In this document: one piece after another, positions 1,376-13,028 of the stretch | Layout of the letters: each line of letters opens with the position of its first letter | How positions within the stretch are numbered: position 1 is the first letter of the stretch | Origin: Candidatus Omnitrophota bacterium | GTDB taxonomy: Bacteria; Omnitrophota; Gorgyraeia; Aquiviventales; JACQRC01 | Length of the DNA stretch: 64,000 bases | Reading direction: 5' to 3' | Assembly (NCBI GenBank): GCA_016206665.1 | Contig: JACQRC010000089.1 | Location: 8,393-72,392 of the forward strand | Notes under the pieces: generated by a model | Told to the model about the DNA's origin: nothing | The model's input: only the letters and a program-made list of their open reading frames with translations | The model's database searches: none | Position numbers and translations under genes: made by a program

Positions 1376-1693
1376 ATGAAATCTAGAAAATTAACACGGG
1401 TCCAGGATCACCTGCAAGAGAAGCTGCGCTCTCCCCAATTTCGAGAATCCTATGCGGTGGAGGTCTTTAAGGCGCAGATCGCCAGGGAAATCATCGAGGT
1501 CAGAATCAAAGAGGGATTGACGCAGGGGGAGCTGGCCCAGAAAATCGGCGTTACGCAGCAGGAGATTTCCAAGATTGAAAATGGCGAATTCCAGCAGATT
1601 AAGACCGTGATGAGAGTGTTGCTCGCCCTTCGGCATCGGACGACCGTCTGCTTGCCCGCCGAGGAAGTGCCTCTCGGGTCTCAGCGCGCTTGA
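1376..1693 (+). CDS. XRE-family helix-turn-helix transcriptional regulator (possible antitoxin-like)
   Basis: HTH_XRE signature (LTQGELAQKIGVTQQEISKIENGE). Confidence 0.7.
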   Translation: MKSRKLTRVQDHLQEKLRSPQFRESYAVEVFKAQIAREIIEVRIKEGLTQGELAQKIGVTQQEISKIENGEFQQIKTVMRVLLALRHRTTVCLPAEEVPLGSQRA

Positions 1694-1854
1694 TGGCCCG
1701 CGTCAAACAAGCCAAGCGCTCAGGCATTCCTCCCGCCGCCCTCGCCCGCTTCAAGGCCAAGGTGCTGAAGGGGCAGCCTGGCGACATTACCGCCAGTTCG
1801 ATGGAGGAATTGATTGCCAAGCTCCACCGCAAGAGCCGCCGCCGGCCAGCCTGA
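1693..1854 (+). CDS. small basic hypothetical protein (53 aa), possible partner of the XRE regulator
   Basis: ATG at 1693 overlaps the stop of the HTH gene (TGATG) and the ORF runs to TGA 1852-1854. Below the ORF-track length cutoff; no recognisable domain. Confidence 0.25.
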   Translation: MARVKQAKRSGIPPAALARFKAKVLKGQPGDITASSMEELIAKLHRKSRRRPA

Positions 1855-1949
1855 CCCTACCACCGCTAATTCCTGTTCCCCGCCCGCCGGATTTGCTACA
1901 ATAGGCTCTCCTTCCCCGGCTTCATTCAGCGCAAGGGAAAGCCACAGCA

Positions 1950-2105
1950 AGCAGACCACGGAGACACGGAAGCACGTGTCCGTGGTTCCGTGCACCTGGC
2001 CGTGGCGCGGCACTTCCGTGGTTCCGTGATTACCAAAGTACCTGGTACGCTTATTACCAAACACATCGCTAAATATGCTATAGTGTTTGGTAAACCAAAC
2101 ATCGC
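1950..2105 (+). promoter_or_regulatory. palindrome- and repeat-rich regulatory region upstream of the NTase gene pair
   Basis: CACGGA / TTCCGTG arms surround a central CACGTG at ~1957-1992. ccgtggttccgtg occurs twice (1978-1990 and 2015-2027) and ttaccaaa occurs twice. A perfect palindrome tgtttggtAAaccaaaca lies at 2084-2101, and a tatagt -10-like box at ~2071. Confidence 0.4.
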
Positions 2106-2107
2106 CT

Positions 2108-2416
2108 ATGGCCCACGTGATCAGAGCCGTCCTCCAAGAAGAATTAGCCAATTCCCGGCGGATGCAGCGCCGGTACGAACAGGCCCTGCGCAGGCTCGGC
2201 AAGGGCAGCCTGGTCAGGAAGCGCATCAGCGGCCATCCGTACTACTACCTGGCGCTGCGGGAAGGCAGGCGGGTGCGGTTCCAGTATCTGGGCAAGCTGT
2301 CGGCACAGGAACGTCAAGCGCGGCTGGCGCAGCATCGGCAGCGCGGGCAGTATCGGCGCCTCCTCCGGGAGGTCAAGCAGCAAATTCGCTTCCTGGAGCG
2401 GTCCCTGCGTGGCTAG
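2108..2416 (+). CDS. hypothetical basic protein, probable DNA-binding partner (antitoxin-like) of the downstream nucleotidyltransferase
   Basis: ORF with ATG at 2108 (the ORF track extends to a TTG at 2087). Arg-rich; its 3' end overlaps the downstream NTase start by 8 nt. Confidence 0.45.
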   Translation: MAHVIRAVLQEELANSRRMQRRYEQALRRLGKGSLVRKRISGHPYYYLALREGRRVRFQYLGKLSAQERQARLAQHRQRGQYRRLLREVKQQIRFLERSLRG

Positions 2417-3092
2417 CCAGCGCACGTTGTGCCAAGCGGTGCTCACGCGCCTGGCAAAGGCCGGTGTGCTGGAGGAGGTCGTGCTCATCGGGAGCTGGTG
2501 TCTGGAAGGCTACAAGAGCTACTTCGGCCGGCAGACACCGCTGACGGCGTTGCGGACGCGCGATATCGACTTTCTGGTGCCGCGACCAATGCGTATGCGA
2601 ACAGCGGTGGACGTGCCTGCCCTCCTGGACGATCTGGGCTTTATCCTGGACTTCCACCGGGGCGGGTACATCCGCCTCGTCCATCCGGAGCTAATTGTGG
2701 AGTTCCTCGTCCCAGAGCGGGGGCGGGGGACGGATCAGCCGGTGCGCTTACCCCAACTGAGCATCAACGCGCAATCCCTGCGCTTCTTGAATATGTTGGC
2801 GGAGCAGACGATCATGGCCACGCTGGAAGGGACCACGGTGCGCATGCCCCACCCGGCCGCCTTTGCGCTGCAGAAACTGCTCATCGCGCCGAGGCGTCAA
2901 GGCCATACGGGCAAGCAGGCCAAGGACGTGGAGGCAGCCATCGCGGTCCTGGAAGCCCTGCGCGCTCATGGAGAAACGGCCTCAGTGAGCCGGTGCTTTA
3001 CAGCACTGCCACGACGCTGGCAAACACACATTCGCCAGGCGCTCGGCGCGCGTCGCGAGCTGCGCGATTGGCTGGCGCTGCTGTCCAGTTAA
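2409..3092 (+). CDS. Pol-beta-superfamily nucleotidyltransferase, AbiEii/DUF1814-like (putative type IV TA toxin)
   Basis: GS-X10-DxD minimal NTase motif (LIGSWCLEGYKSYFGRQTPLTALRTRDIDFLV) near the N-terminus. ~227 aa; GTG start overlaps the upstream gene. Confidence 0.55.
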   Translation: MASQRTLCQAVLTRLAKAGVLEEVVLIGSWCLEGYKSYFGRQTPLTALRTRDIDFLVPRPMRMRTAVDVPALLDDLGFILDFHRGGYIRLVHPELIVEFLVPERGRGTDQPVRLPQLSINAQSLRFLNMLAEQTIMATLEGTTVRMPHPAAFALQKLLIAPRRQGHTGKQAKDVEAAIAVLEALRAHGETASVSRCFTALPRRWQTHIRQALGARRELRDWLALLSS

Positions 3093-3443: not shown

Positions 3444-5144
3444 ATGAGCGGATACGGCAGCTTGTCGAAAGAGCAGTTGATCGACAAAATCAAACGCTTA
3501 CAAAAACGTAAGAAATTTGGATTGGTTTGGGAGGACAAACTCGAAGATGTGGCAGAGCTTTGTAAGACAAAATTACCCGTGCTGGTCGATGAAAAAGGAG
3601 AGGAAATTTCGGATAGCGTGGCCGAGACAGCAAATGTGTTGATCGAAGGCGATAATTATCATGCACTCTCGGTTCTGAATTATACGCACAAGGGGAAAAT
3701 CGATTTCATTTATATAGACCCTCCTTACAACACTGGTGCAAAAGACTGGAAATATAACAACGCCTTTGTGGATGCTCAAGACCCCTACAGACATTCCAAG
3801 TGGCTATCCTTCATGGAGAAACGCCTCAAATTGGCAAAAAATCTTCTAAGGGATCAGGGAATTATATGTGTAACGATTGACGATTATGAAATGCCTCGTT
3901 TGTGGTCGCTTATGGATGAAATATATAACGAAAGTAATCATCTCGGAACCGTGGTTATAAGAAACAATCCGAAAGGAAGGAAAACGAAAAGGAAGGTATC
4001 GCTAATTCACGAATACGCCTTGTTTTACGGGCGAAGCGGTAATGCCAAGATTCAGAAATTAGAGGTCGCACCAGAGGACAAAACGCATAACTATGTGAAG
4101 GATAAGGACGACTCATGGTATCTGCCCGGCAACCTGAGAAAACAGGGAGTTGATAGTTTGGCCGTATCGCCTAAGACTGGGAGGTTGTCGGATAGATACT
4201 ACCCCATATATTACGATCCCAAGACGGGCAAGGTGAGTACCACCAAGAGTAAGCAATCAATAAAGATTTTGCCCATAGATAAGGACGGACAAAAAAGAAT
4301 ATGGCGTAGAGCCAAGCAAGTCATCGATGAGATGTTTGAGAGGGGTGATGTGTGGTATCAGAAAACCAAGTACGGCAATCAAATATTTTATAAATTTAGA
4401 GGCGGATTAGATGGCGAACCGCCAGAAAGCATTTGGTATGAGTCGAAATTTTCAGCAAGCGAACACGGGACACAAATACTCGACACAATTTTGGGAGTGC
4501 GAGAAACATTTCAGTATCCGAAATCCCCATACGCTGTTATGGAATGTATAAAAGTTGCTACCGCAAGCAGGGACGCGATCATACTGGATTTCTTCGCCGG
4601 TTCCGGCACTACCGGCCACGCAGCCTTAGAGTTAAATAGTGAAGATAATGGAAATCGCCAGTTCATTCTTTGCACAAATAATGAGAATGGCATTTGCAGG
4701 AACGTATGCTATCCCCGCATCAGGAAAGTCATGGCTGGATATACAGACTCAAAAAAGAAAAAAATAAATGGTTTAGGTGGAAATCTCAAATATTTTAAAA
4801 CGGATTTTGTTGAAGCCGAGCCAACTGATAAGAACAAAAAGAAATTAACGGTACAAGCGACTGAAATGCTTTGCTTGAAGGAGGGGGCGTTTAGAACAGT
4901 TGTTAACAAAAAATCTTTCAAAATTTTCAAGAATGCGAACCATTACGTGGGAATCATTTTTGACCACACAGCCATCCCCGATTTCAAGCAAGCGATCGAA
5001 AAGCTACAAGGCAAATTTAGCGTATACGTGTTCTCTCTTGGTGATGATGCTTTTGATGAGGAATTCGAGGATGTAAAACAAAAAGTGAAACTCTCGCCTA
5101 TTCCTGACGCGATCTTGAGAGTCTATCGAAGAATCTTCAAATGA
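3444..5144 (+). CDS. mod: Type III restriction-modification system, DNA methyltransferase (Mod) subunit, N6-adenine, beta class
   Basis: DPPY motif IV (IYIDPPYNTG) precedes the AdoMet motif I (LDFFAGSGTTGHAA), i.e. the beta-class order typical of Type III Mod. Low-GC codon usage; stop overlaps the res start (ATGA). Confidence 0.85.
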   Translation: MSGYGSLSKEQLIDKIKRLQKRKKFGLVWEDKLEDVAELCKTKLPVLVDEKGEEISDSVAETANVLIEGDNYHALSVLNYTHKGKIDFIYIDPPYNTGAKDWKYNNAFVDAQDPYRHSKWLSFMEKRLKLAKNLLRDQGIICVTIDDYEMPRLWSLMDEIYNESNHLGTVVIRNNPKGRKTKRKVSLIHEYALFYGRSGNAKIQKLEVAPEDKTHNYVKDKDDSWYLPGNLRKQGVDSLAVSPKTGRLSDRYYPIYYDPKTGKVSTTKSKQSIKILPIDKDGQKRIWRRAKQVIDEMFERGDVWYQKTKYGNQIFYKFRGGLDGEPPESIWYESKFSASEHGTQILDTILGVRETFQYPKSPYAVMECIKVATASRDAIILDFFAGSGTTGHAALELNSEDNGNRQFILCTNNENGICRNVCYPRIRKVMAGYTDSKKKKINGLGGNLKYFKTDFVEAEPTDKNKKKLTVQATEMLCLKEGAFRTVVNKKSFKIFKNANHYVGIIFDHTAIPDFKQAIEKLQGKFSVYVFSLGDDAFDEEFEDVKQKVKLSPIPDAILRVYRRIFK

Positions 5145-7360
5145 TGCTTCTGAAAGATTACCAGAACAACGCCATTAAGGAATTGCTCGGAAAAGCCAAA
5201 AAGCTTATTACCTACGGCGACGCGAAACGCATGGTTTTTAAAGCCCCCACCGCATCAGGTAAGACAATCATGATGGCCGAGTTCTTAAAGCAGTTATGCG
5301 AAGACAGGGAAGTTCTCGCTTCGTTTTCGCTTATCTGGACGGCCCCAAGGCAACTGCACATCCAGAGCAAGGACAAGCTGGAACAGTATTACGAGACAAG
5401 CCGCGCCCTTAGGTGTTCCCTCTTTGAGGAATTGGATGACAAACGGATTGACGAAGGCGAAATCCTCTTTTTCAACTGGGAGAGCATCAACAAGAACGAC
5501 AACATTTACATCCGCGAAAACGAGCAGGACAACAATCTGTCAAATGTTATAAGCCGGACGAAGGAGGAAGGCCGGATAATCGTTCTCGTCATTGACGAGA
5601 GCCATCACCATGCTACGAGCGAAATATCGCAAAACTTAATCCGCGACATTGACCCGAAGCTGACCATTGAAGTATCAGCTACCCCTGCGATGGAAAGCCC
5701 GGATGAGATTGTCTCCGTTCAGCTTGAGGATGTTAAGGCGGAGGCAATGATCAAGAAAGCTGTTATATTAAATCCGGACTTTGAAAATGTTCTCAGGGAC
5801 AGAAAAATTCAGAGTCAGTTAAGCAAGCAGTCCGAGGAGTTAGTTATTGAAACTGCTCTTAAGAAGCGAGATGCCCTTAAAGAAGCCTACAAGAAAGAGA
5901 GAGTAGGCGTCAATCCGCTCATTCTTATCCAGCTGCCGGACAGGAAAACGTCGCTTGAAGATGTGATTAAGGACAAAGTTATCGCAGTCCTCAAGAACAA
6001 GCACAAGATCACAGCTGAAAGTGGAAAGCTGGCAATCCATCTGGCGGAGCATAAAGAGAATCTTGACGACATTTCTGATCCCTACAACGAAGTAGAAGTT
6101 TTGATATTTAAACAAGCCCTTGCCTTGGGCTGGGATTGCCCCAGGGCTCATATCTTGGTTCTTTTCCGAGACTGGCAGAGCTTTGAGTTTTCGATCCAGA
6201 CAATAGGACGGATCATGCGTATGCCAGAACCTGATCATGGTCATTACGACACTGAAATCTTGAATTACGGATATGTATTTACCAACATCGAAAGTATAGA
6301 AATCCAAGAAGACTTGGCCAGAGATTACATCACGATTCACGCTTCGAAGCGTGGACGTGAATATTCACCTCTGTCGCTGCTTTCTTGCCACTCCAAGCGG
6401 TATCGCGAGAAAACTCGTTTGGCACCAATTTTTATCAAAGTTTTTCTGCAGGAAACTGCTGCCTACAGTCTGAGCCAGAGAATAAGGAAAAAAGCGAAGG
6501 GATTAAGCGCAAGATTTATTTCTGATTATAAGGCCGAGAATGTTGATGCATTAGCTGGCGCAAGCATAATCGGCGACAGGGCCATTAGAGTAACTGGCTG
6601 GGATTTACAAAAGTATTTTGATTACTTCATACGAAAGAGCCTCGCGCCGTTCTACGCCGAAGACAGGTCTATAGGCAGACTAAAAGAGGCCATTTACGAA
6701 TTTTTTGAGCAGGTCATGGGGATGCGCTATGAGGTTGTTCAAGAAGAGATTGTTCAAACGGTTTTAAGCGAAGGAAACCTCGTGCATTTTATTAATGTGA
6801 TCGACCAAGCTAAGGACAAATACATTGACTACATTTCAAGGCGGGAAAAAGAGCTTGAATTTGACCAGGGATGGGAAGTGCCAGAAACCATTGGTTTCAA
6901 CGCTCGCTACGCTATCGAAGATCGAAAAAAGTCCATCATGCACCCCTTTTTTAAGAGTGAGTATTCGGGTGTCGAAGCCGCATTTATGACTTTTTTAGAT
7001 GAACAGGACAAGGTAGTCTGGTGGTTCAAGAACGAAGCCAAGAATCCGGCTTATTTTGCTGTTCTCTACGAGGAAGATGGCGACAAAAGACCATTTTACG
7101 TTGATTTTATTGTCCAATTGAAAGATGGATTGATTGGGCTTTTCGATACGAAGGCCGGTCTGACCCAAAAAGTAGCTGGCCCGAAAGTCAATGGGCTTCG
7201 GACATATGTTGGGGAACAGAACAAAAAGGGCAAGAGGCTATTTGGCGGGATCGTTACCAATACCGATGGTCGGAATTACGCCGGGCGATGGGTTTACTTC
7301 AATAGGGAAGGAAAGGAATTATCCGGCAGCCTGGATAATTGGGAGACTTTGGCTTTTTAG
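5141..7360 (+). CDS. res: Type III restriction enzyme Res subunit (SF2 DEAD/DEAH helicase-nuclease)
   Basis: Walker A APTASGKT, DEAH-like box VIDESHHH and helicase motif layout. Translationally coupled to mod; low GC. Confidence 0.75.
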   Translation: MMLLKDYQNNAIKELLGKAKKLITYGDAKRMVFKAPTASGKTIMMAEFLKQLCEDREVLASFSLIWTAPRQLHIQSKDKLEQYYETSRALRCSLFEELDDKRIDEGEILFFNWESINKNDNIYIRENEQDNNLSNVISRTKEEGRIIVLVIDESHHHATSEISQNLIRDIDPKLTIEVSATPAMESPDEIVSVQLEDVKAEAMIKKAVILNPDFENVLRDRKIQSQLSKQSEELVIETALKKRDALKEAYKKERVGVNPLILIQLPDRKTSLEDVIKDKVIAVLKNKHKITAESGKLAIHLAEHKENLDDISDPYNEVEVLIFKQALALGWDCPRAHILVLFRDWQSFEFSIQTIGRIMRMPEPDHGHYDTEILNYGYVFTNIESIEIQEDLARDYITIHASKRGREYSPLSLLSCHSKRYREKTRLAPIFIKVFLQETAAYSLSQRIRKKAKGLSARFISDYKAENVDALAGASIIGDRAIRVTGWDLQKYFDYFIRKSLAPFYAEDRSIGRLKEAIYEFFEQVMGMRYEVVQEEIVQTVLSEGNLVHFINVIDQAKDKYIDYISRREKELEFDQGWEVPETIGFNARYAIEDRKKSIMHPFFKSEYSGVEAAFMTFLDEQDKVVWWFKNEAKNPAYFAVLYEEDGDKRPFYVDFIVQLKDGLIGLFDTKAGLTQKVAGPKVNGLRTYVGEQNKKGKRLFGGIVTNTDGRNYAGRWVYFNREGKELSGSLDNWETLAF

Positions 7361-7462
7361 CGAGCAAAGAGAGGGCCCAAAAGCACCGAGTACTTCGATG
7401 CCCTGCTGAACTATGTATCATGCCCACACACTTGGTATTGTGTTTACCGAATTAAAATTGGC

Positions 7463-8620
7463 ATGACCCAATTTTCGGGTACTCTACTGGCAAGCGGCGT
7501 TGTAGCCGCAGCGACGACGGCCACCCTACAGTTCCGCAGCGTTAGATGGGAACGACGGAAAGAATTTCTCGAGCACCAGCTGCGGTTGTATGGTCCCGCC
7601 TACGCCCTAATAGCACAGAATCGCGATGCTTTTGAACGAATCAAGAGCATTCATGTGCAGGGTGAGAAGCGCTTGAGTGGTGTAATCGGGGCAGAGAAAG
7701 ACATTGATGCAACGATAGCGGTGGCAAACGAACACATCAGACGAATCGTCTTGAGTAATAATGAAATCCTTGAGGACATGCTTAAGAAGAATCTACACTT
7801 CATCGATCCGGATGACATCCAGCTTGTAACGCAATTTTTCCATGATATGGCCAATTTAAAGGTGGAGACCTCAGCAGACGTGGGAACAAAGTTACCACTT
7901 CTAATGGCGCTGGATCTTCCCAATATATCATTTATGCGGCCCGGCCTTATTGAGTGCTTTGAGCAAAGATTTAGGCAGAAACAGGTTCAGTTTCGAGAAA
8001 TGCTAGGGAGCAGCAAGAGGCATCAACGGGATTTGCCAACGAACAAAAGACCGCTTTGCGCTGTTGGTTTACCTCCACGCATCTGGCGGACGTTTGCTAT
8101 ACCTGTCTTGACCGGCTTGATGGTGGCGCTCTTCTGGCATTTCTTTGAAGTGGTAAAACCGTGGAAGATAACATTATTCTTACCCTATGCGTATGAATAT
8201 GCCTATAGAGGAGCCACCAACACTACAGGCAATCAAAGCAGAGAAATCCTGCCCGTCGTCCCCATCCGCGTGCGTCTTACTGACAAAGCGAGTGGGTTTG
8301 TGTTTGCCGTTCACAATGATAACATTCGGAGTCTCCACGGAGTCTCGTTACATCTGCAACTACCGCCGGGTGTTGAGGTGACTGATCCAGGACCATTCAG
8401 AGCGTTTTGGCCAAACGAGGAATACTTTTTCTCTTTTGGGGACGCGGTGTTGAATCACGGAGTTTTCTATGCGACTGAGGTGCGTAATACTGCAGGCGAA
8501 CTGAAGGGTTCGATTCAACTAAAATTCAGCCAGCCAAGAGAGTACGAGATAATAGCCACTGTGAGCGGAGAAGACATGCTTCCGGCAGAGAAGAAAATCA
8601 AAATTGTCGTAGTACCCTAG
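7463..8620 (+). CDS. hypothetical membrane-associated protein (385 aa) of unknown function in the defence island
   Basis: Long low-GC ORF. N-terminal hydrophobic segment and an internal TM (AIPVLTGLMVALFWHFF); no recognisable catalytic motifs. Confidence 0.45.
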   Translation: MTQFSGTLLASGVVAAATTATLQFRSVRWERRKEFLEHQLRLYGPAYALIAQNRDAFERIKSIHVQGEKRLSGVIGAEKDIDATIAVANEHIRRIVLSNNEILEDMLKKNLHFIDPDDIQLVTQFFHDMANLKVETSADVGTKLPLLMALDLPNISFMRPGLIECFEQRFRQKQVQFREMLGSSKRHQRDLPTNKRPLCAVGLPPRIWRTFAIPVLTGLMVALFWHFFEVVKPWKITLFLPYAYEYAYRGATNTTGNQSREILPVVPIRVRLTDKASGFVFAVHNDNIRSLHGVSLHLQLPPGVEVTDPGPFRAFWPNEEYFFSFGDAVLNHGVFYATEVRNTAGELKGSIQLKFSQPREYEIIATVSGEDMLPAEKKIKIVVVP

Positions 8621-8666
8621 ACGCTTTACGCTATCCATAATGCCCGAAGCGGTTATTGACAGAATT

Positions 8667-8712
8667 GGCCAGGTTGAACCTCAGCGGAACGTGGCCCGAG
8701 TGAATTAAGTAT
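8667..8712 (+). repeat. 46-bp repeat, copy 1 (hairpin-forming), left of the 8733-9200 gene
   Basis: ggccaggttgaacctcagcggaacgtggcccgagtgaattaagtat matches 9190-9235 at 43 of 46 positions. It contains an imperfect stem ggccaggtt / aacgtggcc. Confidence 0.7.
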
Positions 8713-8732
8713 CTGTCCATGGAGTTGCAGTC

Positions 8733-9200
8733 ATGGATGCAAAGATTGTTGTGAAAATTTTAGGTCTTACCATAACTTCGGCTGGCGTCGTTCTGAGCCT
8801 GCTCAATCTGAAGGGTTTTCTCAAGTACCCAGAGCGCCTAAATTTTGCGCATTTGGCGCTCGAAACGAGCGAAGGCATTCCGCTTTCGCATCCTGGAGCT
8901 AAGTCCTTTATGAGTCGCTTCCCGCCACCTCCAACAGACAGCAAGGGTACGTTCACTCACTTCGTAAAAAATGCAATACAATTTACTGGTGGCGGGACCC
9001 CATTGTCAGGCACTGTTAAATACATGTATCCTGATGGAAGGCGGACTGCTGCGGTCGCAACATTTGAAGACGTAAAGCGCTGGGCCGCAGAATCACGTTA
9101 TCCGTGGCTTGCCTGGTGGCTGACAGTCGTAGGACTTCTCATCACTAGTGCAGGTGTCTTTTGGGACTGGCGGACAGCAGATCCCACCGGGCCAGGTTGA
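8733..9200 (+). CDS. hypothetical two-TM membrane protein (155 aa)
   Basis: Hydrophobic helices at the N-terminus (KILGLTITSAGVVLSLL) and C-terminus (WLAWWLTVVGLLITSAGVFW). Low GC; its stop codon lies inside repeat copy 2. Confidence 0.4.
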   Translation: MDAKIVVKILGLTITSAGVVLSLLNLKGFLKYPERLNFAHLALETSEGIPLSHPGAKSFMSRFPPPPTDSKGTFTHFVKNAIQFTGGGTPLSGTVKYMYPDGRRTAAVATFEDVKRWAAESRYPWLAWWLTVVGLLITSAGVFWDWRTADPTGPG

Positions 9201-9235
9201 ACCTCCGCGGAACGTGGCCCGATTGAATTAAATAT
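9190..9235 (+). repeat. 46-bp repeat, copy 2, right of the 8733-9200 gene
   Basis: ggccaggttgaacctccgcggaacgtggcccgattgaattaaatat is a direct repeat of 8667-8712. Confidence 0.7.
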
Positions 9236-9276
9236 TGCGGCCCTCAAATCGTTTATTACTTTGGGTAATATTTTGC

Positions 9277-9305
9277 TTGACAAACATCCGGCCGGTTCGT
9301 ATAGT
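9277..9305 (+). promoter_or_regulatory. consensus sigma70 promoter TTGACA-N17-TATAGT driving the non-coding region upstream of the RT module
   Basis: Perfect -35 at 9277-9282, exact 17-nt spacer, TATAGT -10 at 9300-9305. The nearest ORF start is ~450 nt downstream. Confidence 0.6.
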
Positions 9306-9311
9306 GCTTCT

Positions 9312-9758
9312 GGTGGATCCGATGGGACCATCGGACGTTCGATCTTTGATAGCTGCTACCTCCTTTTACTTTTAGCGAGGCGCGGTACCAAGAGTCGCTG
9401 AGAAGCGGCTGACCAGCCTGCCCCATGAAGACACCGTCATCCAGGACAGCCAATAGTGCGGTTGTCAAGGAAGGCGGGGTCTGTACGAAGGAGCTGGCGC
9501 TGGGTTAGTGTTCGGGCATGTGGTAAGCCAGAGAATTAAGGTGACCTGAGGCCAGACCCACGTAGCAGAACACTGGAAGACCCGGAACCTGTTCCAGTTG
9601 GGCAAGCCTACCCGTGCGGGTAGGAAATGACGTAGGCAGGGGTTCCAGGATGTTTTGGAAGAAGACGGGATCGCTTCCCCTTCCCCGCGGTGCGCGCCGA
9701 GCTTATGCAGGGGTTCCGGGTGCGCAACCCGGCTAGCTGCAGAGGAGGTGATGAAACA
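9312..9758 (+). ncRNA. candidate structured non-coding RNA (retron msr-msd-like or other RT-associated ncRNA); boundaries approximate
   Basis: It lies between the strong promoter and the first plausible RBS/ATG (GGAGGTG..ATG at 9759), with no convincing ORF. Multiple perfect hairpins are present: ccgatgg-ga-ccatcgg (9320-9335), cctacccg-tgc-gggtagg (~9607-9625), ccgggt-gcgca-acccgg (~9714-9730) and actggaa..ttccagt (~9572-9598). ggggttccRgg is a direct repeat. Confidence 0.35.
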
Positions 9759-10004
9759 ATGAGTAAGTGGCAGCTTATTTCAAAGGTCCTGGAGTTGATC
9801 TCGAAGTTAGAAGAGATCATCACCAGCGAGGGGAAGCGAAATTCTGAAGCGTCTGAGCTTCAGGAGTGCAGGGGCGACCTCAGGACTCTGCTAAAAAAAC
9901 TGCGGAGCCCCGGCGAGTCGGTCAACCCGAACGAAGTTCTACTGCTGTCATATAAAGCCGTAGAACACATAGCCTCCTGGCTCGAAGGAAAAGAAGAGAA
10001 GTAG
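9759..10004 (+). CDS. small hypothetical helical protein (81 aa)
   Basis: AGGAGGTGA RBS 6-7 nt upstream of ATG 9759. Predicted charged/coiled-coil protein. May instead be part of the ncRNA. Confidence 0.35.
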   Translation: MSKWQLISKVLELISKLEEIITSEGKRNSEASELQECRGDLRTLLKKLRSPGESVNPNEVLLLSYKAVEHIASWLEGKEEK

Positions 10005-10116
10005 AAACGATCAGACGCGGAAGACCCGTCTTTACTTCCAACAATAAAGTTTCTCCTGCCATTTTTCCTTCCTTACAATACACCAAGAACCTAAAAAGCG
10101 AACAAGGACGAACATC

Positions 10117-10410
10117 ATGAACGTCGGTGAAGCAATAAAAACGCTGCGGGTGAGGCGGCAGATAACTCAAAAGTTCCTGGCAGAACGATGCGGGATTACG
10201 CAAGGCTTCCTATCCCTTGTTGAAAGAGGAGACAGGGAGCCAGGGTTTGACTTAGTTGAGAAGATATCAGAAACGCTAGGCGTCCCACCACAGCTTATAC
10301 TCCTGCTTGCTTGTGAGAAATACACGCGGGGCAAACGCTACTCAAAACCTTTAAGGAAGATTGCTTTGACTCTAGACGAGCTACTTCACGCCTATTCCGC
10401 CGCTTGCTAA
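10117..10410 (+). CDS. XRE-family HTH DNA-binding protein, translationally coupled to the reverse transcriptase
   Basis: HTH_XRE signature (ITQKFLAERCGITQGFLSLVERGDREP). Stop TAA overlaps the RT start codon (TAATG). Confidence 0.7.
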   Translation: MNVGEAIKTLRVRRQITQKFLAERCGITQGFLSLVERGDREPGFDLVEKISETLGVPPQLILLLACEKYTRGKRYSKPLRKIALTLDELLHAYSAAC

Positions 10411-11333
10411 TGCATCCTCATCGAGCAGGGTCCACCATTTTATCGCCTGAAGAATTCGGGCGAGTTTTGGGCTACGAGCCAGCCTTCCTCCAGGACATGG
10501 TTAAGAATATCGAAAAAAACTACAGCCCCTATTTGGATAGAACAGGAAAGAAGCCACGCTGGATTGCCAGACCATCTGAAACTCTTAAGGGCGTCCAGCG
10601 TAAGATTCTCGATAACTTCCTGGAACTGGTCTCGTTGCCGAATTACGTCATTGGTGGAGTAAAGGGAAGGAAACACGCAGAACATCCAAAGTTACACGTA
10701 GGCCACCCTATCGTTGTGACGCTTGACGTCAAAGATTGCTACCCCAATATCACTTATAAGCAAGTTCTCGAGGTGTTCCGCGAGATCGGATTCTCCAAAG
10801 AAGTTGCGGTTTTGGCTACACGGCTGACAACGTACAGACGTCGGCTACCGTTGGGTGCTCCTAGTAGTACTCAGCTTGCCAATTTAATACTGAAACCAGC
10901 GGTGACGCGTGTCTGCGCCCTCGCAGAACAGGCAGGATTGGATGTTGCGAGTCAGTATATAGATGATCTGGCTTTCTCGGGAGATCAACTGCCTAACGAT
11001 TTCATCACTCTGGCGATCCGAGAATTCTCAAGACACATGATTAAGATTAACCGCAAGAAAATTCAAGTTATGCGTAGAGGCCATACACAACTTGTGACAA
11101 GAAGGCTGGTGAATGCTCGGGTCGCTCTGCCCACAAAGGAAAGACACAGAGTTAGGGCTGCACTTCACCAGCTCGGTAAGCTTGAAGCAAGTGATTCCTC
11201 ATATAGCAAGCAGTTCCTCAGTGTGCGTGGACGGATTCTCTCTTTAAGGAAATTACATCCACATCTTGGGCAACGTCTGATGGCGCAGCTCAACAGTCTG
11301 CAGAAGTCCACAACCAAGAAAACATCGCACTAA
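10410..11333 (+). CDS. retron-type reverse transcriptase (~307 aa, Ec86-like)
   Basis: RT motifs are present: 1-2 IVVTLDVKDCYPNI, 4 LPLGAPSSTQLANLIL, 5 YIDDLAFSG (YxDD). A retron-like C-terminal region is present (KKIQVM..QLVTRRLVN, corresponding to the VTG motif). The block order and many residues parallel the E. coli Ec86 retron RT. There is no maturase/X or endonuclease domain. Confidence 0.8.
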   Translation: MHPHRAGSTILSPEEFGRVLGYEPAFLQDMVKNIEKNYSPYLDRTGKKPRWIARPSETLKGVQRKILDNFLELVSLPNYVIGGVKGRKHAEHPKLHVGHPIVVTLDVKDCYPNITYKQVLEVFREIGFSKEVAVLATRLTTYRRRLPLGAPSSTQLANLILKPAVTRVCALAEQAGLDVASQYIDDLAFSGDQLPNDFITLAIREFSRHMIKINRKKIQVMRRGHTQLVTRRLVNARVALPTKERHRVRAALHQLGKLEASDSSYSKQFLSVRGRILSLRKLHPHLGQRLMAQLNSLQKSTTKKTSH

Positions 11334-11554
11334 TCTGCACTAGTGCCTTCCCGCGCGATAATAGGCCAAAAGAAACCGTACGGTGCTCCAGGGGGGCTGA
11401 CTATCCGTGAAAGCGCAGCGTTGCCAATGACCGCCAAAGTTATAGCCCAGAGAAAATTCGGATCGGCGCTATCATCTTGAATTCGAGGAATGCATCACCT
11501 AACTACAGGCCGAAATAATTTCCGTGTCCCTGAATTTTAAAGGGGGAAGTTTCA

Positions 11555-12202
11555 ATGGTAAAACTTTTCCTCGATATAGAAACCCTGCCCGCTGAAGAGT
11601 CCTTCAAAGCTGAAATTCAGAAGGGGATTCTTGCGCCGCGGGGTCCTAAAAAGAAGGCGGCAAAGGTCGCCGCGGCGCCAGCGACACCTAAGGAACTGGA
11701 AGAGCAATTGCGACAAACGGCCCTCAGCGGGGACTTTGGGCGAATTCTCTGTATTGGATACTGTAAAGAACCTCCTGCGGGGAGTTCTGCTGAGATACTG
11801 CAGGGTGGCGAGCGCGAGATATTGGAAAAGTTTTGGGTGATTGCGAGAGATGTCGATCTTTTTATTGGGCACAACGTTATGGAGTTCGATTTAAGGTTCA
11901 TCTACAAAAGGTCGATCATTCACAAAGTGAGGCCGACGAAAAACGATTTGAGCTTCGCACGATATCGCAGCCAACCAATCTACGACATCATGCGAGAGTG
12001 GGAAAAGTGGGACGTACAGACGTACACCTCTCTTGACAGAATGGCCAAAGTTTTGGGATTGGAGACTTCAAAGAAGGGACTGTCTGGAGACAAGGTTTAC
12101 GACGCTTTCCTGGCTGGGAAACTTAATGAGATCTACGAATATTGCAAGGCGGATGTTGAGCTGACGAGGCAGATTTATAAGCGAATGAATTTCGAGATCT
12201 AG
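11555..12202 (+). CDS. predicted 3'-5' exonuclease related to the exonuclease domain of family-B DNA polymerases (DEDD/RNase H-like fold)
   Basis: N-terminal LFLDIETLP (Exo I DxE). A C-terminal YCKADVELT (Exo III YxxxD) is present. Length ~215 aa, typical of stand-alone PolB-like exonucleases; low GC like the RT. Confidence 0.65.
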   Translation: MVKLFLDIETLPAEESFKAEIQKGILAPRGPKKKAAKVAAAPATPKELEEQLRQTALSGDFGRILCIGYCKEPPAGSSAEILQGGEREILEKFWVIARDVDLFIGHNVMEFDLRFIYKRSIIHKVRPTKNDLSFARYRSQPIYDIMREWEKWDVQTYTSLDRMAKVLGLETSKKGLSGDKVYDAFLAGKLNEIYEYCKADVELTRQIYKRMNFEI

Positions 12203-12382
12203 TAAAGGTACCAGCTTCCTCCGTGCCAGGTTAACCGAAGCATAGCTGATGAGCACAAAACTAATTGACCCAGACAAAATCCAGATCGGCGACGTGGTGT
12301 TGGTGGCCACGCGGAATCGGATTACGGAGTGGGTGCAACGGAAGCTGGGGTTTGGGGATCGGAGGGCCGTTGAGGACGACAC

Positions 12383-12417
12383 TTGACATGCATAAAAACT
12401 CATGCTATCTTATGCAT
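12383..12417 (+). promoter_or_regulatory. sigma70-like promoter (TTGACA-N17-TATCTT) overlapped by the inverted repeat ATGCATAA-N14-TTATGCAT (operator) for vapBC
   Basis: -35 at 12383-12388, -10 at 12406-12411. Palindromic arms lie at 12388-12395 and 12410-12417. Confidence 0.5.
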
Positions 12418-12430
12418 TGGAGGTGACCCC

Positions 12431-12631
12431 ATGCGGACGACCCTGGACATCAACGCGCGGTTGCTGCGGGACGCCATGCGGCGCGCCCGCCTCAAGACGA
12501 AGACCGAGACGGTGGAGCGCGGGCTGGAGGAGCTCATCAATACCGAGCGGCGCCGGCGGCTGATCCGAGCCCGGGGCGCGGGTTACGGATTGACCTTCGA
12601 GGACTTCCTGCGTTCCCGCCGGGATGAGTAG
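12431..12631 (+). CDS. vapB: type II antitoxin, VapB-like
   Basis: Small Arg-rich protein immediately upstream of, and overlapping by 8 nt, a PIN-domain gene. ATG at 12431 follows the GGAGGTGA RBS. Confidence 0.7.
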   Translation: MRTTLDINARLLRDAMRRARLKTKTETVERGLEELINTERRRRLIRARGAGYGLTFEDFLRSRRDE

Positions 12632-13028
12632 ACAGCTCGTCCTCGCGGACACCTCGGTCTGGGTGGCGCACCTGACCGGGCGTCACACAGCGGTGACGAA
12701 CGCCCTGCAAGAGCTCCTGTCCGCACACCGCGTGGCCGTCAATGCCGTGATTCGGCTCGAGCTGTTGACCGGCGCCCGGGACGAGGCCCAGTACGCCGAA
12801 CTCGATGACGCCCTGGGCGGCTTGCACGCGGTGGAGCTGACGGAGGCCGTCTGGCGCCAGGCCGAGCGGCTGCGGTTCGACTTGCGACGGCGCGGGCGGT
12901 TGATTCCCGCCCTGGATGTGCTCATCGCCTCCTGCGCGATGGCGTATGATTGCGCCGTGCTGCATGCCGACCGCCACTTCGACTTCATCGCGCGCAGCGC
13001 TCCACTGACGATTCATCAGCCCGCCTAA
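12624..13028 (+). CDS. vapC: type II toxin VapC (PIN-domain ribonuclease)
   Basis: PIN-domain acidic residues (LADTSVW.., ..LELLTGA.., ..PALDVLIAS..) and size ~134 aa. Confidence 0.8.
   Translation: MSRQLVLADTSVWVAHLTGRHTAVTNALQELLSAHRVAVNAVIRLELLTGARDEAQYAELDDALGGLHAVELTEAVWRQAERLRFDLRRRGRLIPALDVLIASCAMAYDCAVLHADRHFDFIARSAPLTIHQPA

Follow-up and report, generated by a model that had tools for sequence, protein, structure and literature searches.

[quoted passage not shown] In Retron-Vpa2 and Retron-Sen3, a hyRNA that contains the msr-msd and the SP toxin ORF is accompanied by the HTH and RT genes. Integron attC sites contain RYYYAAC and GTTRRRY motifs that pair on one strand as the R box at the foot of the hairpin, have an L box, an unpaired central spacer and extrahelical bases, and are 57–141 bp in length (PMC5027507). 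Integrons and CALINs are marked by a nearby IntI integrase or by an array of two or more attC sites, and REP, MITE and PATE elements by many copies dispersed through a genome. In tandem accretion, attL, attR and internal att sites have a core in common, and their arms are shared pairwise among the sites (PMC5704250). CIMEs are cis-mobilizable elements that keep attL and attR but have lost the integrase; the known ones are kilobases long and occupy conserved targets, tRNA genes for instance. Here we describe a locus in a 64-kb window (the whole stretch of DNA that was analysed) in which a gene for a 155-aa protein with two TM helices (2TM) lies between two 46-bp direct repeats, ahead of a Type VI retron. 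We consider it about an even bet that these repeats are a one-off insertion scar around the 155-aa gene, in an island assembled module by module, a reading drawn from one locus.

The low-GC stretch at ~3.4–12.4 kb is best explained as a ~9-kb defence island, acquired horizontally, to which this locus belongs; its GC content is 0.41–0.46, as compared with 0.57–0.69 for the flanking host DNA. Its modules are all encoded on the forward strand. The first consists of Type III restriction-modification genes at 3444..7360 (mod 3444–5144, res 5141–7360), which match the PADLOC models MTase_III (E = 6.8e-81) and REase_III (E = 2.1e-16) and the Pfam families N6_N4_Mtase and ResIII. It is followed by the genes for a 385-aa membrane protein (7463..8620) and the 155-aa two-TM protein (8733..9200), by the retron (9277..11333) and, as the last island gene, by that for a 215-aa PolB-exonuclease-like, RNase H-fold protein (11555..12202; Pfam DNA_pol_B_exo2, E = 3.4e-16; RNase_H_2, E = 1.1e-10). 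The modules are mutually independent, each protein family being found elsewhere without the others, and a tblastn comparison of all window proteins with all fetched loci revealed no co-occurrence. A Pfam scan of the ORFs examined at 1–20 kb found no recombinase gene and likewise no integrase or HUH transposase, and Rfam had no match in 7000–12500.

Judged from sequence, the RT module appears to be a complete Type VI retron, with a clade-3 RT, an overlapping upstream Cro/C1 HTH gene, an SP ORF and a structured RNA. PADLOC, a promoter scan, RNA folding and the ORF list together delineate a self-contained unit. It begins with a sigma-70-like promoter, TTGACA-17-TATAGT (9277–9305, an 11/12 match), which is followed by a hyRNA-like structured region at about 9310–10015 (fold z = −5.67) that encloses an SP ORF of 81 aa (9759–10004). 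The HTH (10117–10410; PADLOC HTH_VI, E = 2e-19) and RT (10404–11333; RT_VI, E = 8.1e-57) ORFs overlap by 7 nt. The SP–HTH–RT order and the strong promoter are those of published Type VI retrons, as is the ~700-nt, highly structured RNA with paired ends and direct repeats in loops, and the SP is close in length to that of Sen3 (79 aa). The locus differs from published examples in that the SP matches no library by sequence and in that two membrane proteins and a 46-bp repeat upstream of the promoter have no published counterpart. An RT-based search for related loci found none in genomes or viral contigs.

The two 46-bp copies noted in the preliminary description are real. They are 43/46 identical without gaps, far above chance, and they bracket the 155-aa gene exactly, with that single gene enclosed. 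Copy 1 (8667..8712) begins 47 nt past the stop codon of the 385-aa gene and ends 20 nt ahead of the 155-aa ATG; copy 2 (9190..9235) starts within the 155-aa coding sequence, covering its final 11 nt, supplies its stop codon (TGA, 9198–9200, inside GTTGAAC) and ends 41 nt ahead of the retron −35 box. A Smith–Waterman comparison of the two flanks of the gene scored 38.5; the best of 500 shuffles reached 14.5. When the window was searched with a 42-nt pattern (two N, up to three mismatches), only these two sites were recovered, both with zero mismatches, and none of 100 dinucleotide-preserving shuffles contained a match; no further diverged copy was found within the 64 kb. Beyond the window, no match was obtained with a stems-only pattern in 185,579 GTDB species genomes (a set from which the source MAG is absent), with a core pattern in IMG/VR viral contigs and JGI metagenome contigs, or by blastn of 8621–9320 against PLSDB plasmids. 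Within the collections that could be searched, the repeat is confined to this locus, an outcome that the preliminary description had itself set against its reading. No sigma-70, ECF-like (GGAAC) or sigma-54 promoter fits inside the repeat by eye, in agreement with the promoter scan. The idea that the 46-mer is a coding remnant was dropped, as it holds an ORF of 22 codons at most.

A second pair of direct repeats brackets the exonuclease gene (11411..11468 and 12233..12291; ~59 nt, 43/59 identical), with its right copy at the right-hand boundary of this low-GC stretch. This pair scored 17.5, a value reached by none of 5,000 shuffles (maximum 14.5) and by none of 2,781 real island pieces, and it would be older than the 46-bp pair. 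Uniting the two pairs in one family was rejected: a four-way alignment yielded an 11/14 patch, but pairwise scores did not exceed those of shuffles. A possible degenerate third partial copy of the 46-mer lies at 12212..12236, 10 nt past the exonuclease stop codon, and aligns with the opening 14 nt of the repeat together with the 12 nt that precede copy 2 (21/25, one gap). Its kinship with the 46-mer is suggestive only: it was found post hoc, and its weak score of 12.0 was reached by none of 5,000 shuffles of the target but by 4 of 2,536 real window pieces. Because flanking repeats were found at none of the eight other 155-aa homologue loci, as against both the 2TM and the exonuclease genes here, the bracketing repeats belong to the island and not to the gene family.

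These observations fit a model in which the 155-aa gene would have come in alone, on a segment of 523 bp, and the 46-bp direct repeats would be the duplicated junction of that insertion. A likely route would be a single crossover, or a small circular intermediate integrating site-specifically, where donor and recipient have a sequence in common; the result would have the geometry of attL/attR. The suggestion of a cassette boundary survives in this loose sense, in that the repeat brackets one gene and behaves like the edge of an inserted segment. If the repeats are an insertion junction, they are therefore not a functional attC, a REP/MITE, a terminator or a part of the retron. As a side effect, recombination between the two 46-bp copies could loop the 2TM gene out again. 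No empty site or alternative allele was found. Repeats of 46–59 bp are far longer than the target duplications made by transposases, and for this reason we assign no enzyme or process to the insertion.

The older pair and the possible third site, with its GGCCAGGTT(G)AACC core, suggest that the island may have grown by repeated events of this kind, that is, by accretion. Copies 1 and 2 share the core and the right arm (43/46), and copy 2 and the third site share the left arm and the core (21/25 with one gap, a score equalled by 4 of 2,536 real pieces). This sharing would fit the B-O-P′ / P-O-P′ / P-O-B′ pattern of tandem accretion, subject to the weak, post hoc status of the third site. As in CIMEs, direct repeats of tens of base pairs flank modules that lack a recombinase. 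The unit here differs from known CIMEs in comprising 523 bp and a single ORF; moreover, the third of its sites is weak, the sequence of the second pair is unrelated and a cognate integrase is not known.

Of the alternatives to an insertion scar, a duplicated RNA 3′-end element, either a terminator without a U-tract or an mRNA-stabilising hairpin, fares best, and we regard it as unlikely. Such an element would close first the 385-aa and then the 155-aa transcript and would insulate the retron promoter, and both copies do lie at or just past stop codons. An imperfect palindrome is indeed predicted, as the preliminary description had it: in both copies, 30 nt can fold into a hairpin that has a small loop, a single internal mismatch and an interrupted stem of 10 bp rich in GC. 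The hairpin is weak, however, at −12.7 kcal/mol, and folds much as shuffles do (z = −1.2; 21–27 of 200 shuffles fold equally well). All three substitutions between the copies fall outside the stem, as some selection on the hairpin might produce, though the pattern is not significant (chance of ~0.18 by our arithmetic). The proposal of a duplicated terminator is not supported. The hairpin is followed by CGAGTGAATTAAGTAT, with no U-tract or T-run, and the terminator scan made no call. The 16-nt tail outside the hairpin is as conserved as the stem, and copy 1 lies only 20 nt upstream of the ATG of the very gene that it would silence, a gap too short to hold a promoter. Moreover, the second repeat pair has no obvious palindrome by eye, and the 46-mer is absent downstream of the 385-aa homologues.

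The 46-mer could instead be an operator common to the 2TM gene and the retron, bound for example by the retron's Cro/C1-type HTH protein and coupling their expression, which we judge to be a distinctly poor prospect. It contains the inverted half-sites GGCCA(G/C)GTT ... AAC(G/C)TGGCC around an inner GGTTgAACC palindrome, each downstream unit has one copy ahead of it, and the gene for an HTH protein lies at a distance of 0.9 kb. Against this, the spacing differs widely (20 nt to the ATG as opposed to 41 nt to the −35 box), copy 1 shows no sign of a promoter and the HTH proteins of studied Type VI retrons are reported in the RT–hyRNA complex, where they neutralise the SP. A search for a related locus with the element, in which its conservation could be tested, found none.

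That the copies are dedicated mobile-cassette sites, whether integron attC sites (including CALINs), REP/RAYT, a MITE or an IS200/IS605-type hairpin element (PATE) with a passenger gene, is very improbable. The resemblance to integron cassettes that led to the attC-like label is genuine as far as it goes: a single ORF per unit, promoterless in appearance, is flanked by directly oriented copies with its stop codon inside the downstream one, and the 46-mer combines a hairpin-forming imperfect palindrome with a GTTGAAC core that fits GTTRRRY. Each copy, however, has one GTTRRRY (at 8673 and 9196), and a regular-expression search of both strands within 30–130 nt found no RYYYAAC to pair with it. 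The R″/R′ pair, the L box and any UCS or EHB arrangement are missing, the polarity of GTT (5′) and AAC (3′) in the hairpin is the reverse of that in attC, and 46 bp falls short of the 57-bp lower end of the attC range. No IntI or HUH transposase gene was found among the ORFs examined within 1–20 kb. Two copies in 64 kb, with none in the metagenome, viral or plasmid collections or in the genome collection (which lacks the source MAG), likewise speak against a REP/MITE-like repeat. Some members of the 155-aa family do occur in rows of small unknown ORFs, as at locus L009, but that locus has no attC-like repeats.

The 155-aa gene itself is real, and its product is a well-folded protein from an accessory gene family of scattered occurrence. 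Its ORF exists as previously described, with a GGAG 8 nt upstream of the ATG, and is probably transcribed either by read-through from genes upstream or from a promoter that escaped recognition. Neither Pfam, PADLOC nor NCBIfam has a model that matches the protein, and PHROGs has none for its family, in keeping with the description of both membrane proteins as uncharacterised and without recognisable domains. The view that it is an orphan, which came from a word-indexed search that returned the query alone, was overturned by exhaustive HMMER searches that gave 97 cluster representatives at E ≤ 1e-3, of which 47 also passed E ≤ 1e-10; tblastn against plasmids and phages gave no match. The family alignment conserves G18, G28, F63-P64, Y97, W117 and G134. 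An AlphaFold (AF2) model was obtained with high confidence (pLDDT 92.7, pTM 0.79), and a fold search of the PDB with this model returned nothing at E < 0.3. The TM helices (3–26 and 123–148) surround a folded alpha/beta domain of ~95 aa, and the protein is therefore not a minimal 2TM peptide, contrary to its initial portrayal. The positive-inside rule, applied to 42 family members, was ambiguous as to the side that the loop domain faces.

Homologues of the 155-aa protein lie in varied, mostly accessory neighbourhoods (toxin–antitoxin, prophage, IS, tRNA-adjacent), and one directly precedes a SieB-family gene. At L007, a family member is found in a housekeeping context. The protein resembles SieB and the 2TM effectors of Type IV retrons and Abi systems in its small size, its two TM helices and its defence or prophage contexts. 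It differs from them in having no sequence or profile similarity and in the conserved, confidently modelled ~95-aa domain between its helices, which carries FPPP and W117 motifs and has no PDB analogue.

Could the 155-aa protein, possibly with the 385-aa protein, nevertheless be an accessory or effector of a novel Type VI retron variant with a membrane effector? The gene is immediately adjacent to the retron and on the same strand, its family is enriched in accessory and defence contexts, including that beside a SieB-family gene, and 2TM effectors are reported from other retron types (Mestre et al. 2020). We nevertheless give this reading very little weight. The gene does lie just upstream of the ncRNA promoter, as first stated, but this places it outside a self-sufficient retron whose promoter follows it and which has an SP ORF of its own. 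As the SP is the published toxin of Type VI retrons, no 2TM effector is required. None of the PADLOC retron-effector models matches the protein, and across 42 family members PADLOC gave nothing at E below about 0.007. No homologue of the retron RT, HTH or SP occurs near the family members at the eight other loci. The sole related retron locus (L014), on a metagenome contig of 1.3 kb, is too short to reach upstream of the ncRNA and is uninformative on this point. Most likely, the 2TM protein functions independently at the membrane, and phage exclusion or abortive infection, suggested by its genomic company, is the leading guess as to its role. With one family member in a housekeeping setting, a defence role is a contextual guess.

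The 385-aa ORF (7463–8620) likewise exists as described and belongs to a rare, unnamed family with four homologues; no Pfam, PADLOC or NCBIfam model matches it. Its designation as a membrane protein holds for one strong hydrophobic segment at about residues 210–232, and its N terminus is merely weakly hydrophobic. This segment separates a helical N-terminal region from a beta-rich C-terminal domain, and the two halves also exist as separate proteins (P0006 corresponding to the N-terminal and P0005 to the C-terminal half). For the most part, the homologues come directly after defence genes of the nuclease or helicase kind (PD-(D/E)XK or DUF499/DUF1156/SNF2). The AF2 model (pLDDT 58) was too poor for a structure search.

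It is very improbable that the island is a miniature gene-cassette array (2TM gene, retron and exonuclease) moved by an undescribed trans-acting system that recognises a ~14-bp core, GGCCAGGTTGAACC, at the foot of the hairpin; if true, this would amount to a non-integron shuffling of single defence genes between islands.

These findings bear on how the locus is annotated and understood. A mis-annotation is averted, as the 2TM gene is better left out of the retron, which is itself a standard, self-sufficient Type VI. The two-TM protein family, with ~100 clusters, is missing from Pfam, PHROGs, NCBIfam and PADLOC and has a confident model that matches no solved structure; found mostly beside defence, toxin–antitoxin and mobile genes, it is therefore a reasonable candidate for phage-exclusion screens. 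Finally, this is a defence island with two adjacent single-gene modules, each with its own flanking direct repeats, and it may record the assembly of such an island gene by gene.

The sources name the two membrane proteins HY597_05720 and HY597_05725 and place them in a Candidatus Omnitrophica MAG, on a 74.8-kb contig. Between ~3.5 and 12.5 kb the GC content is 0.41–0.55, down from 0.57–0.69 outside, and this stretch is therefore a foreign island. Its genes, which are on the + strand throughout, are Type III mod and res (3444–7360; Pfam, PADLOC), the 385-aa ORF (7463–8620), the 155-aa ORF (8733–9200), an 81-aa ORF (9759–10004), a Cro/C1 HTH gene (10117–10410), a gene for a 309-aa reverse transcriptase (10404–11333) and a gene for a PolB-exonuclease-like protein (11555–12202). 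A promoter scan placed a near-consensus promoter (TTGACA-17-TATAGT, + strand) at 9277–9305, and ~450 nt of untranslated sequence separate it from the 81-aa ORF. Toxin–antitoxin-type genes lie on both sides of the island, with an HTH/MqsA-like protein and an NTP_transf_8 nucleotidyltransferase on the left (within 1376–3092) and VapB/VapC-PIN on the right (within 12431–13028). No recombinase gene was present among the ORFs examined at 1–20 kb, and no tRNA gene in the whole 64-kb window.

As the preliminary description had reported, the 155-aa gene is flanked by two direct copies of a 46-bp element (copy 1, 8667–8712; copy 2, 9190–9235) that are identical at 43/46 positions. The pair is real and non-random: its pattern occurs at exactly two sites in the window and at none in 100 shuffles, and a local alignment of the two flanks of the gene reaches 38.5, a score that shuffles never exceed 14.5 to approach. 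The ATG of the gene begins 20 nt past the end of copy 1, and its stop codon is indeed provided by copy 2, in which the TGA sits inside GTTGAAC. The proposed imperfect palindrome is present as a stem (GGCCA.GTT paired with AAC.TGGCC), but the hairpin is weak (−12.7 kcal/mol, z of about −1.2), and 21–27 of 200 shuffles fold equally well. The 64-kb window contains no diverged further copies. Searches with the exact pattern returned zero matches in 185,579 species genomes, JGI metagenomes and IMG/VR, as did blastn with the repeat region against PLSDB plasmids. The element is also missing downstream of the homologues of the 385-aa protein, including at L003, a locus that is similar at the DNA level.

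The element had been read as a cassette boundary, either attC-like or REP/MITE-like, or as a duplicated terminator. The generic idea of a boundary survives in the form of a probable insertion scar, but none of the specific versions is supported. The attC sites span 57–141 bp and are defined by an L box, an unpaired central spacer and extrahelical bases (PMC5027507); the 46-mer is too short and lacks this arrangement. Each copy does contain one GTTRRRY motif, but RYYYAAC is absent from both strands and the polarity of the stem is reversed, with GTT on the 5′ side and AAC on the 3′ side. A REP/MITE-like element is made unlikely by the count of two copies in 64 kb and none in the genome, metagenome, viral and plasmid collections. 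The terminator reading fails on a fold close to that of shuffles, the absence of a T-run and of any call in a terminator scan, and the position of copy 1, which would stop transcription 20 nt before the gene that it precedes.

A pairwise comparison of all island intergenic regions revealed exactly one other significant repeat pair. These direct repeats of ~59 nt, 43/59 identical, bracket the exonuclease gene (11411–11468 and 12233–12291), and their score of 17.5 was reached by 0/5,000 shuffles (maximum 14.5) and by 0/2,781 real island pieces. Two adjacent single-gene modules, the 155-aa gene and the exonuclease gene, thus each have their own flanking direct repeats. No direct repeats surround the family gene in eight other loci with members of the 155-aa family, which suggests that the flanking repeats reflect the assembly of this island and not the gene itself. 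It seems that each module arrived by an insertion in which the junction sequence was duplicated, as in the integration of a circular intermediate at a shared sequence. Insertion with junction duplication is what the 46-bp repeat most likely represents, although no empty-site allele was found. Judged by sequence divergence, the 46-bp pair, which differs at 3/46 positions, would be the younger event and the exonuclease pair, with 27% of positions differing, the older.

What may be a degenerate third site, related to the left flank and core of the 46-bp element, lies at the island's right edge (12212–12236), 10 nt after the exonuclease stop codon. Its counterpart at copy 2 is made up of the repeat's first 14 nt and the 12 nt that precede them; the two agree at 21/25 positions with one gap, a score that is reached by 0/5,000 shuffles but by 4/2,536 real window pieces. 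Copies 1 and 2 have the core and right arm in common, and the third site and copy 2 have the left arm and core. Such sharing of arms among attL-like, internal att-like and attR-like sites would be expected if elements accrete in tandem at a single att site (a concept set out in PMC5704250); found post hoc, it is suggestive only. For a mosaic defence island, the 46-bp pair is nothing out of the ordinary.

The neighbouring reverse transcriptase module was assigned by PADLOC to retron Type VI (HTH_VI, E = 2e-19; RT_VI, E = 8.1e-57). Type VI retrons comprise a promoter, a ‘hybrid RNA’ that combines the msr–msd template with an ORF for a small toxic protein (SP), and then HTH and RT genes; the effector is SP, which is restrained by the HTH protein and the RNA (10.1101/2025.10.22.683967; 10.64898/2026.04.27.721009). 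The window has the same layout. The hybrid-RNA-like region 9310–10015 is much more strongly structured than its shuffles (z = −5.67), its 5′ end pairs with its 3′ end, and the SP position is occupied by the 81-aa ORF, which has only a weak bAvd-like Pfam match (E = 0.07) and compares with an SP of 79 aa in Retron-Sen3. The region also carries 17-nt direct repeats in the loop (9633–9649 and 9704–9720), and such repeats are reported for Retron-Vpa2 as well (10.1101/2025.10.22.683967). With these parts the retron is complete, and no two-transmembrane (2TM) protein is needed. The suggestion that the 155-aa protein is a retron 2TM effector does not hold: the retron promoter lies downstream of its gene, and RT, HTH and SP are all absent from the eight other family loci, as are homologues of the 385-aa protein.

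Only four homologues of the 385-aa protein were found. At the three loci with usable context, one follows a PD-(D/E)XK gene directly (L001), a second comes after a DUF1156/DUF499/SNF2 operon (L002) and a third precedes a gene with a product that is PD-(D/E)XK-like by eye (L003); in the window, the gene directly follows res (together 5141–8620). The 385-aa protein is rare and, from these positions, seems to go with nuclease/helicase defence systems rather than with the retron or the 155-aa gene. Its halves also occur as separate proteins, P0006 (N-half only) and P0005 (C-half only), which suggests that it consists of two modules. Its AlphaFold2 model is unreliable (pLDDT 58).

The 155-aa protein belongs to a conserved family. 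A word-indexed search across 5.8 billion proteins yielded the query alone, whereas exhaustive HMMER recovered representatives of 97 clusters at E ≤ 1e-3 (47 at E ≤ 1e-10), which with few exceptions are 140–220 aa long and align over their full length; an ‘orphan’ label based on the first search would have been wrong. The family alignment runs TM1; G..F..ER; G(I/L)P; F-PPP; THI.K; Y; RT..VAT...V..WA.ET.Y.W.AW; TM2. With this alignment, AlphaFold2 yielded a confident model (pLDDT 92.7, pTM 0.79) with two transmembrane helices (3–26 and 123–148) and a small alpha/beta domain in between. Foldseek against the PDB gave no match with E < 0.3, and a profile search of PDB sequences was empty. Pfam, PHROGs and PADLOC gave no meaningful match for any of 42 members, nor did NCBIfam match the three members scanned. 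These results establish a real, conserved gene from an undescribed family; the protein remains without a recognisable domain, as first described, but it is no orphan. Both helices carry the motif GL(T/L)ITSAGV in different codons (residues 7–18 and 131–142; nt 8751–8786 and 9123–9158), which could reflect an ancient duplication within the protein or serve in helix packing.

The eight other loci examined (L004, L007–L011, L015 and L016; L005 is the L004 locus from NCBI and L006 a short fragment) place the family in varied company. The closest homologue (47% identity; L008, 164–637) directly follows tRNA-Thr(CGT) (67–139), 25 nt apart; tRNA genes are typical island integration points. Other members lie after an AAA+ cytidine-deaminase protein near a CI-type repressor and PemK toxin (L004), in a row of small unknown ORFs with a GIY-YIG protein (L009), beside IS66 and a group II intron (L010), near a Hypoth_Ymh protein (L011, also L012 and L013), beside Phd/YoeB (L015) and among cyanobacterial housekeeping genes (L007). 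At L016 (7835–8829), the member is directly upstream, with a 2-nt gap, of a SieB-family superinfection exclusion gene; no other neighbour observed has a named role in phage exclusion. Accessory, toxin–antitoxin, prophage or mobile contexts thus account for 7–8 of nine loci, one of which adjoins SieB. From this genomic company only, we infer that the 155-aa protein, independent of the retron, may work by itself at the membrane, either in phage exclusion or in abortive infection; its charge distribution is compatible with a loop domain on either membrane side. Two by-products are of modest interest: an undescribed, well-folded 2TM family and, adjoining it, a second repeat-bracketed gene, the exonuclease.
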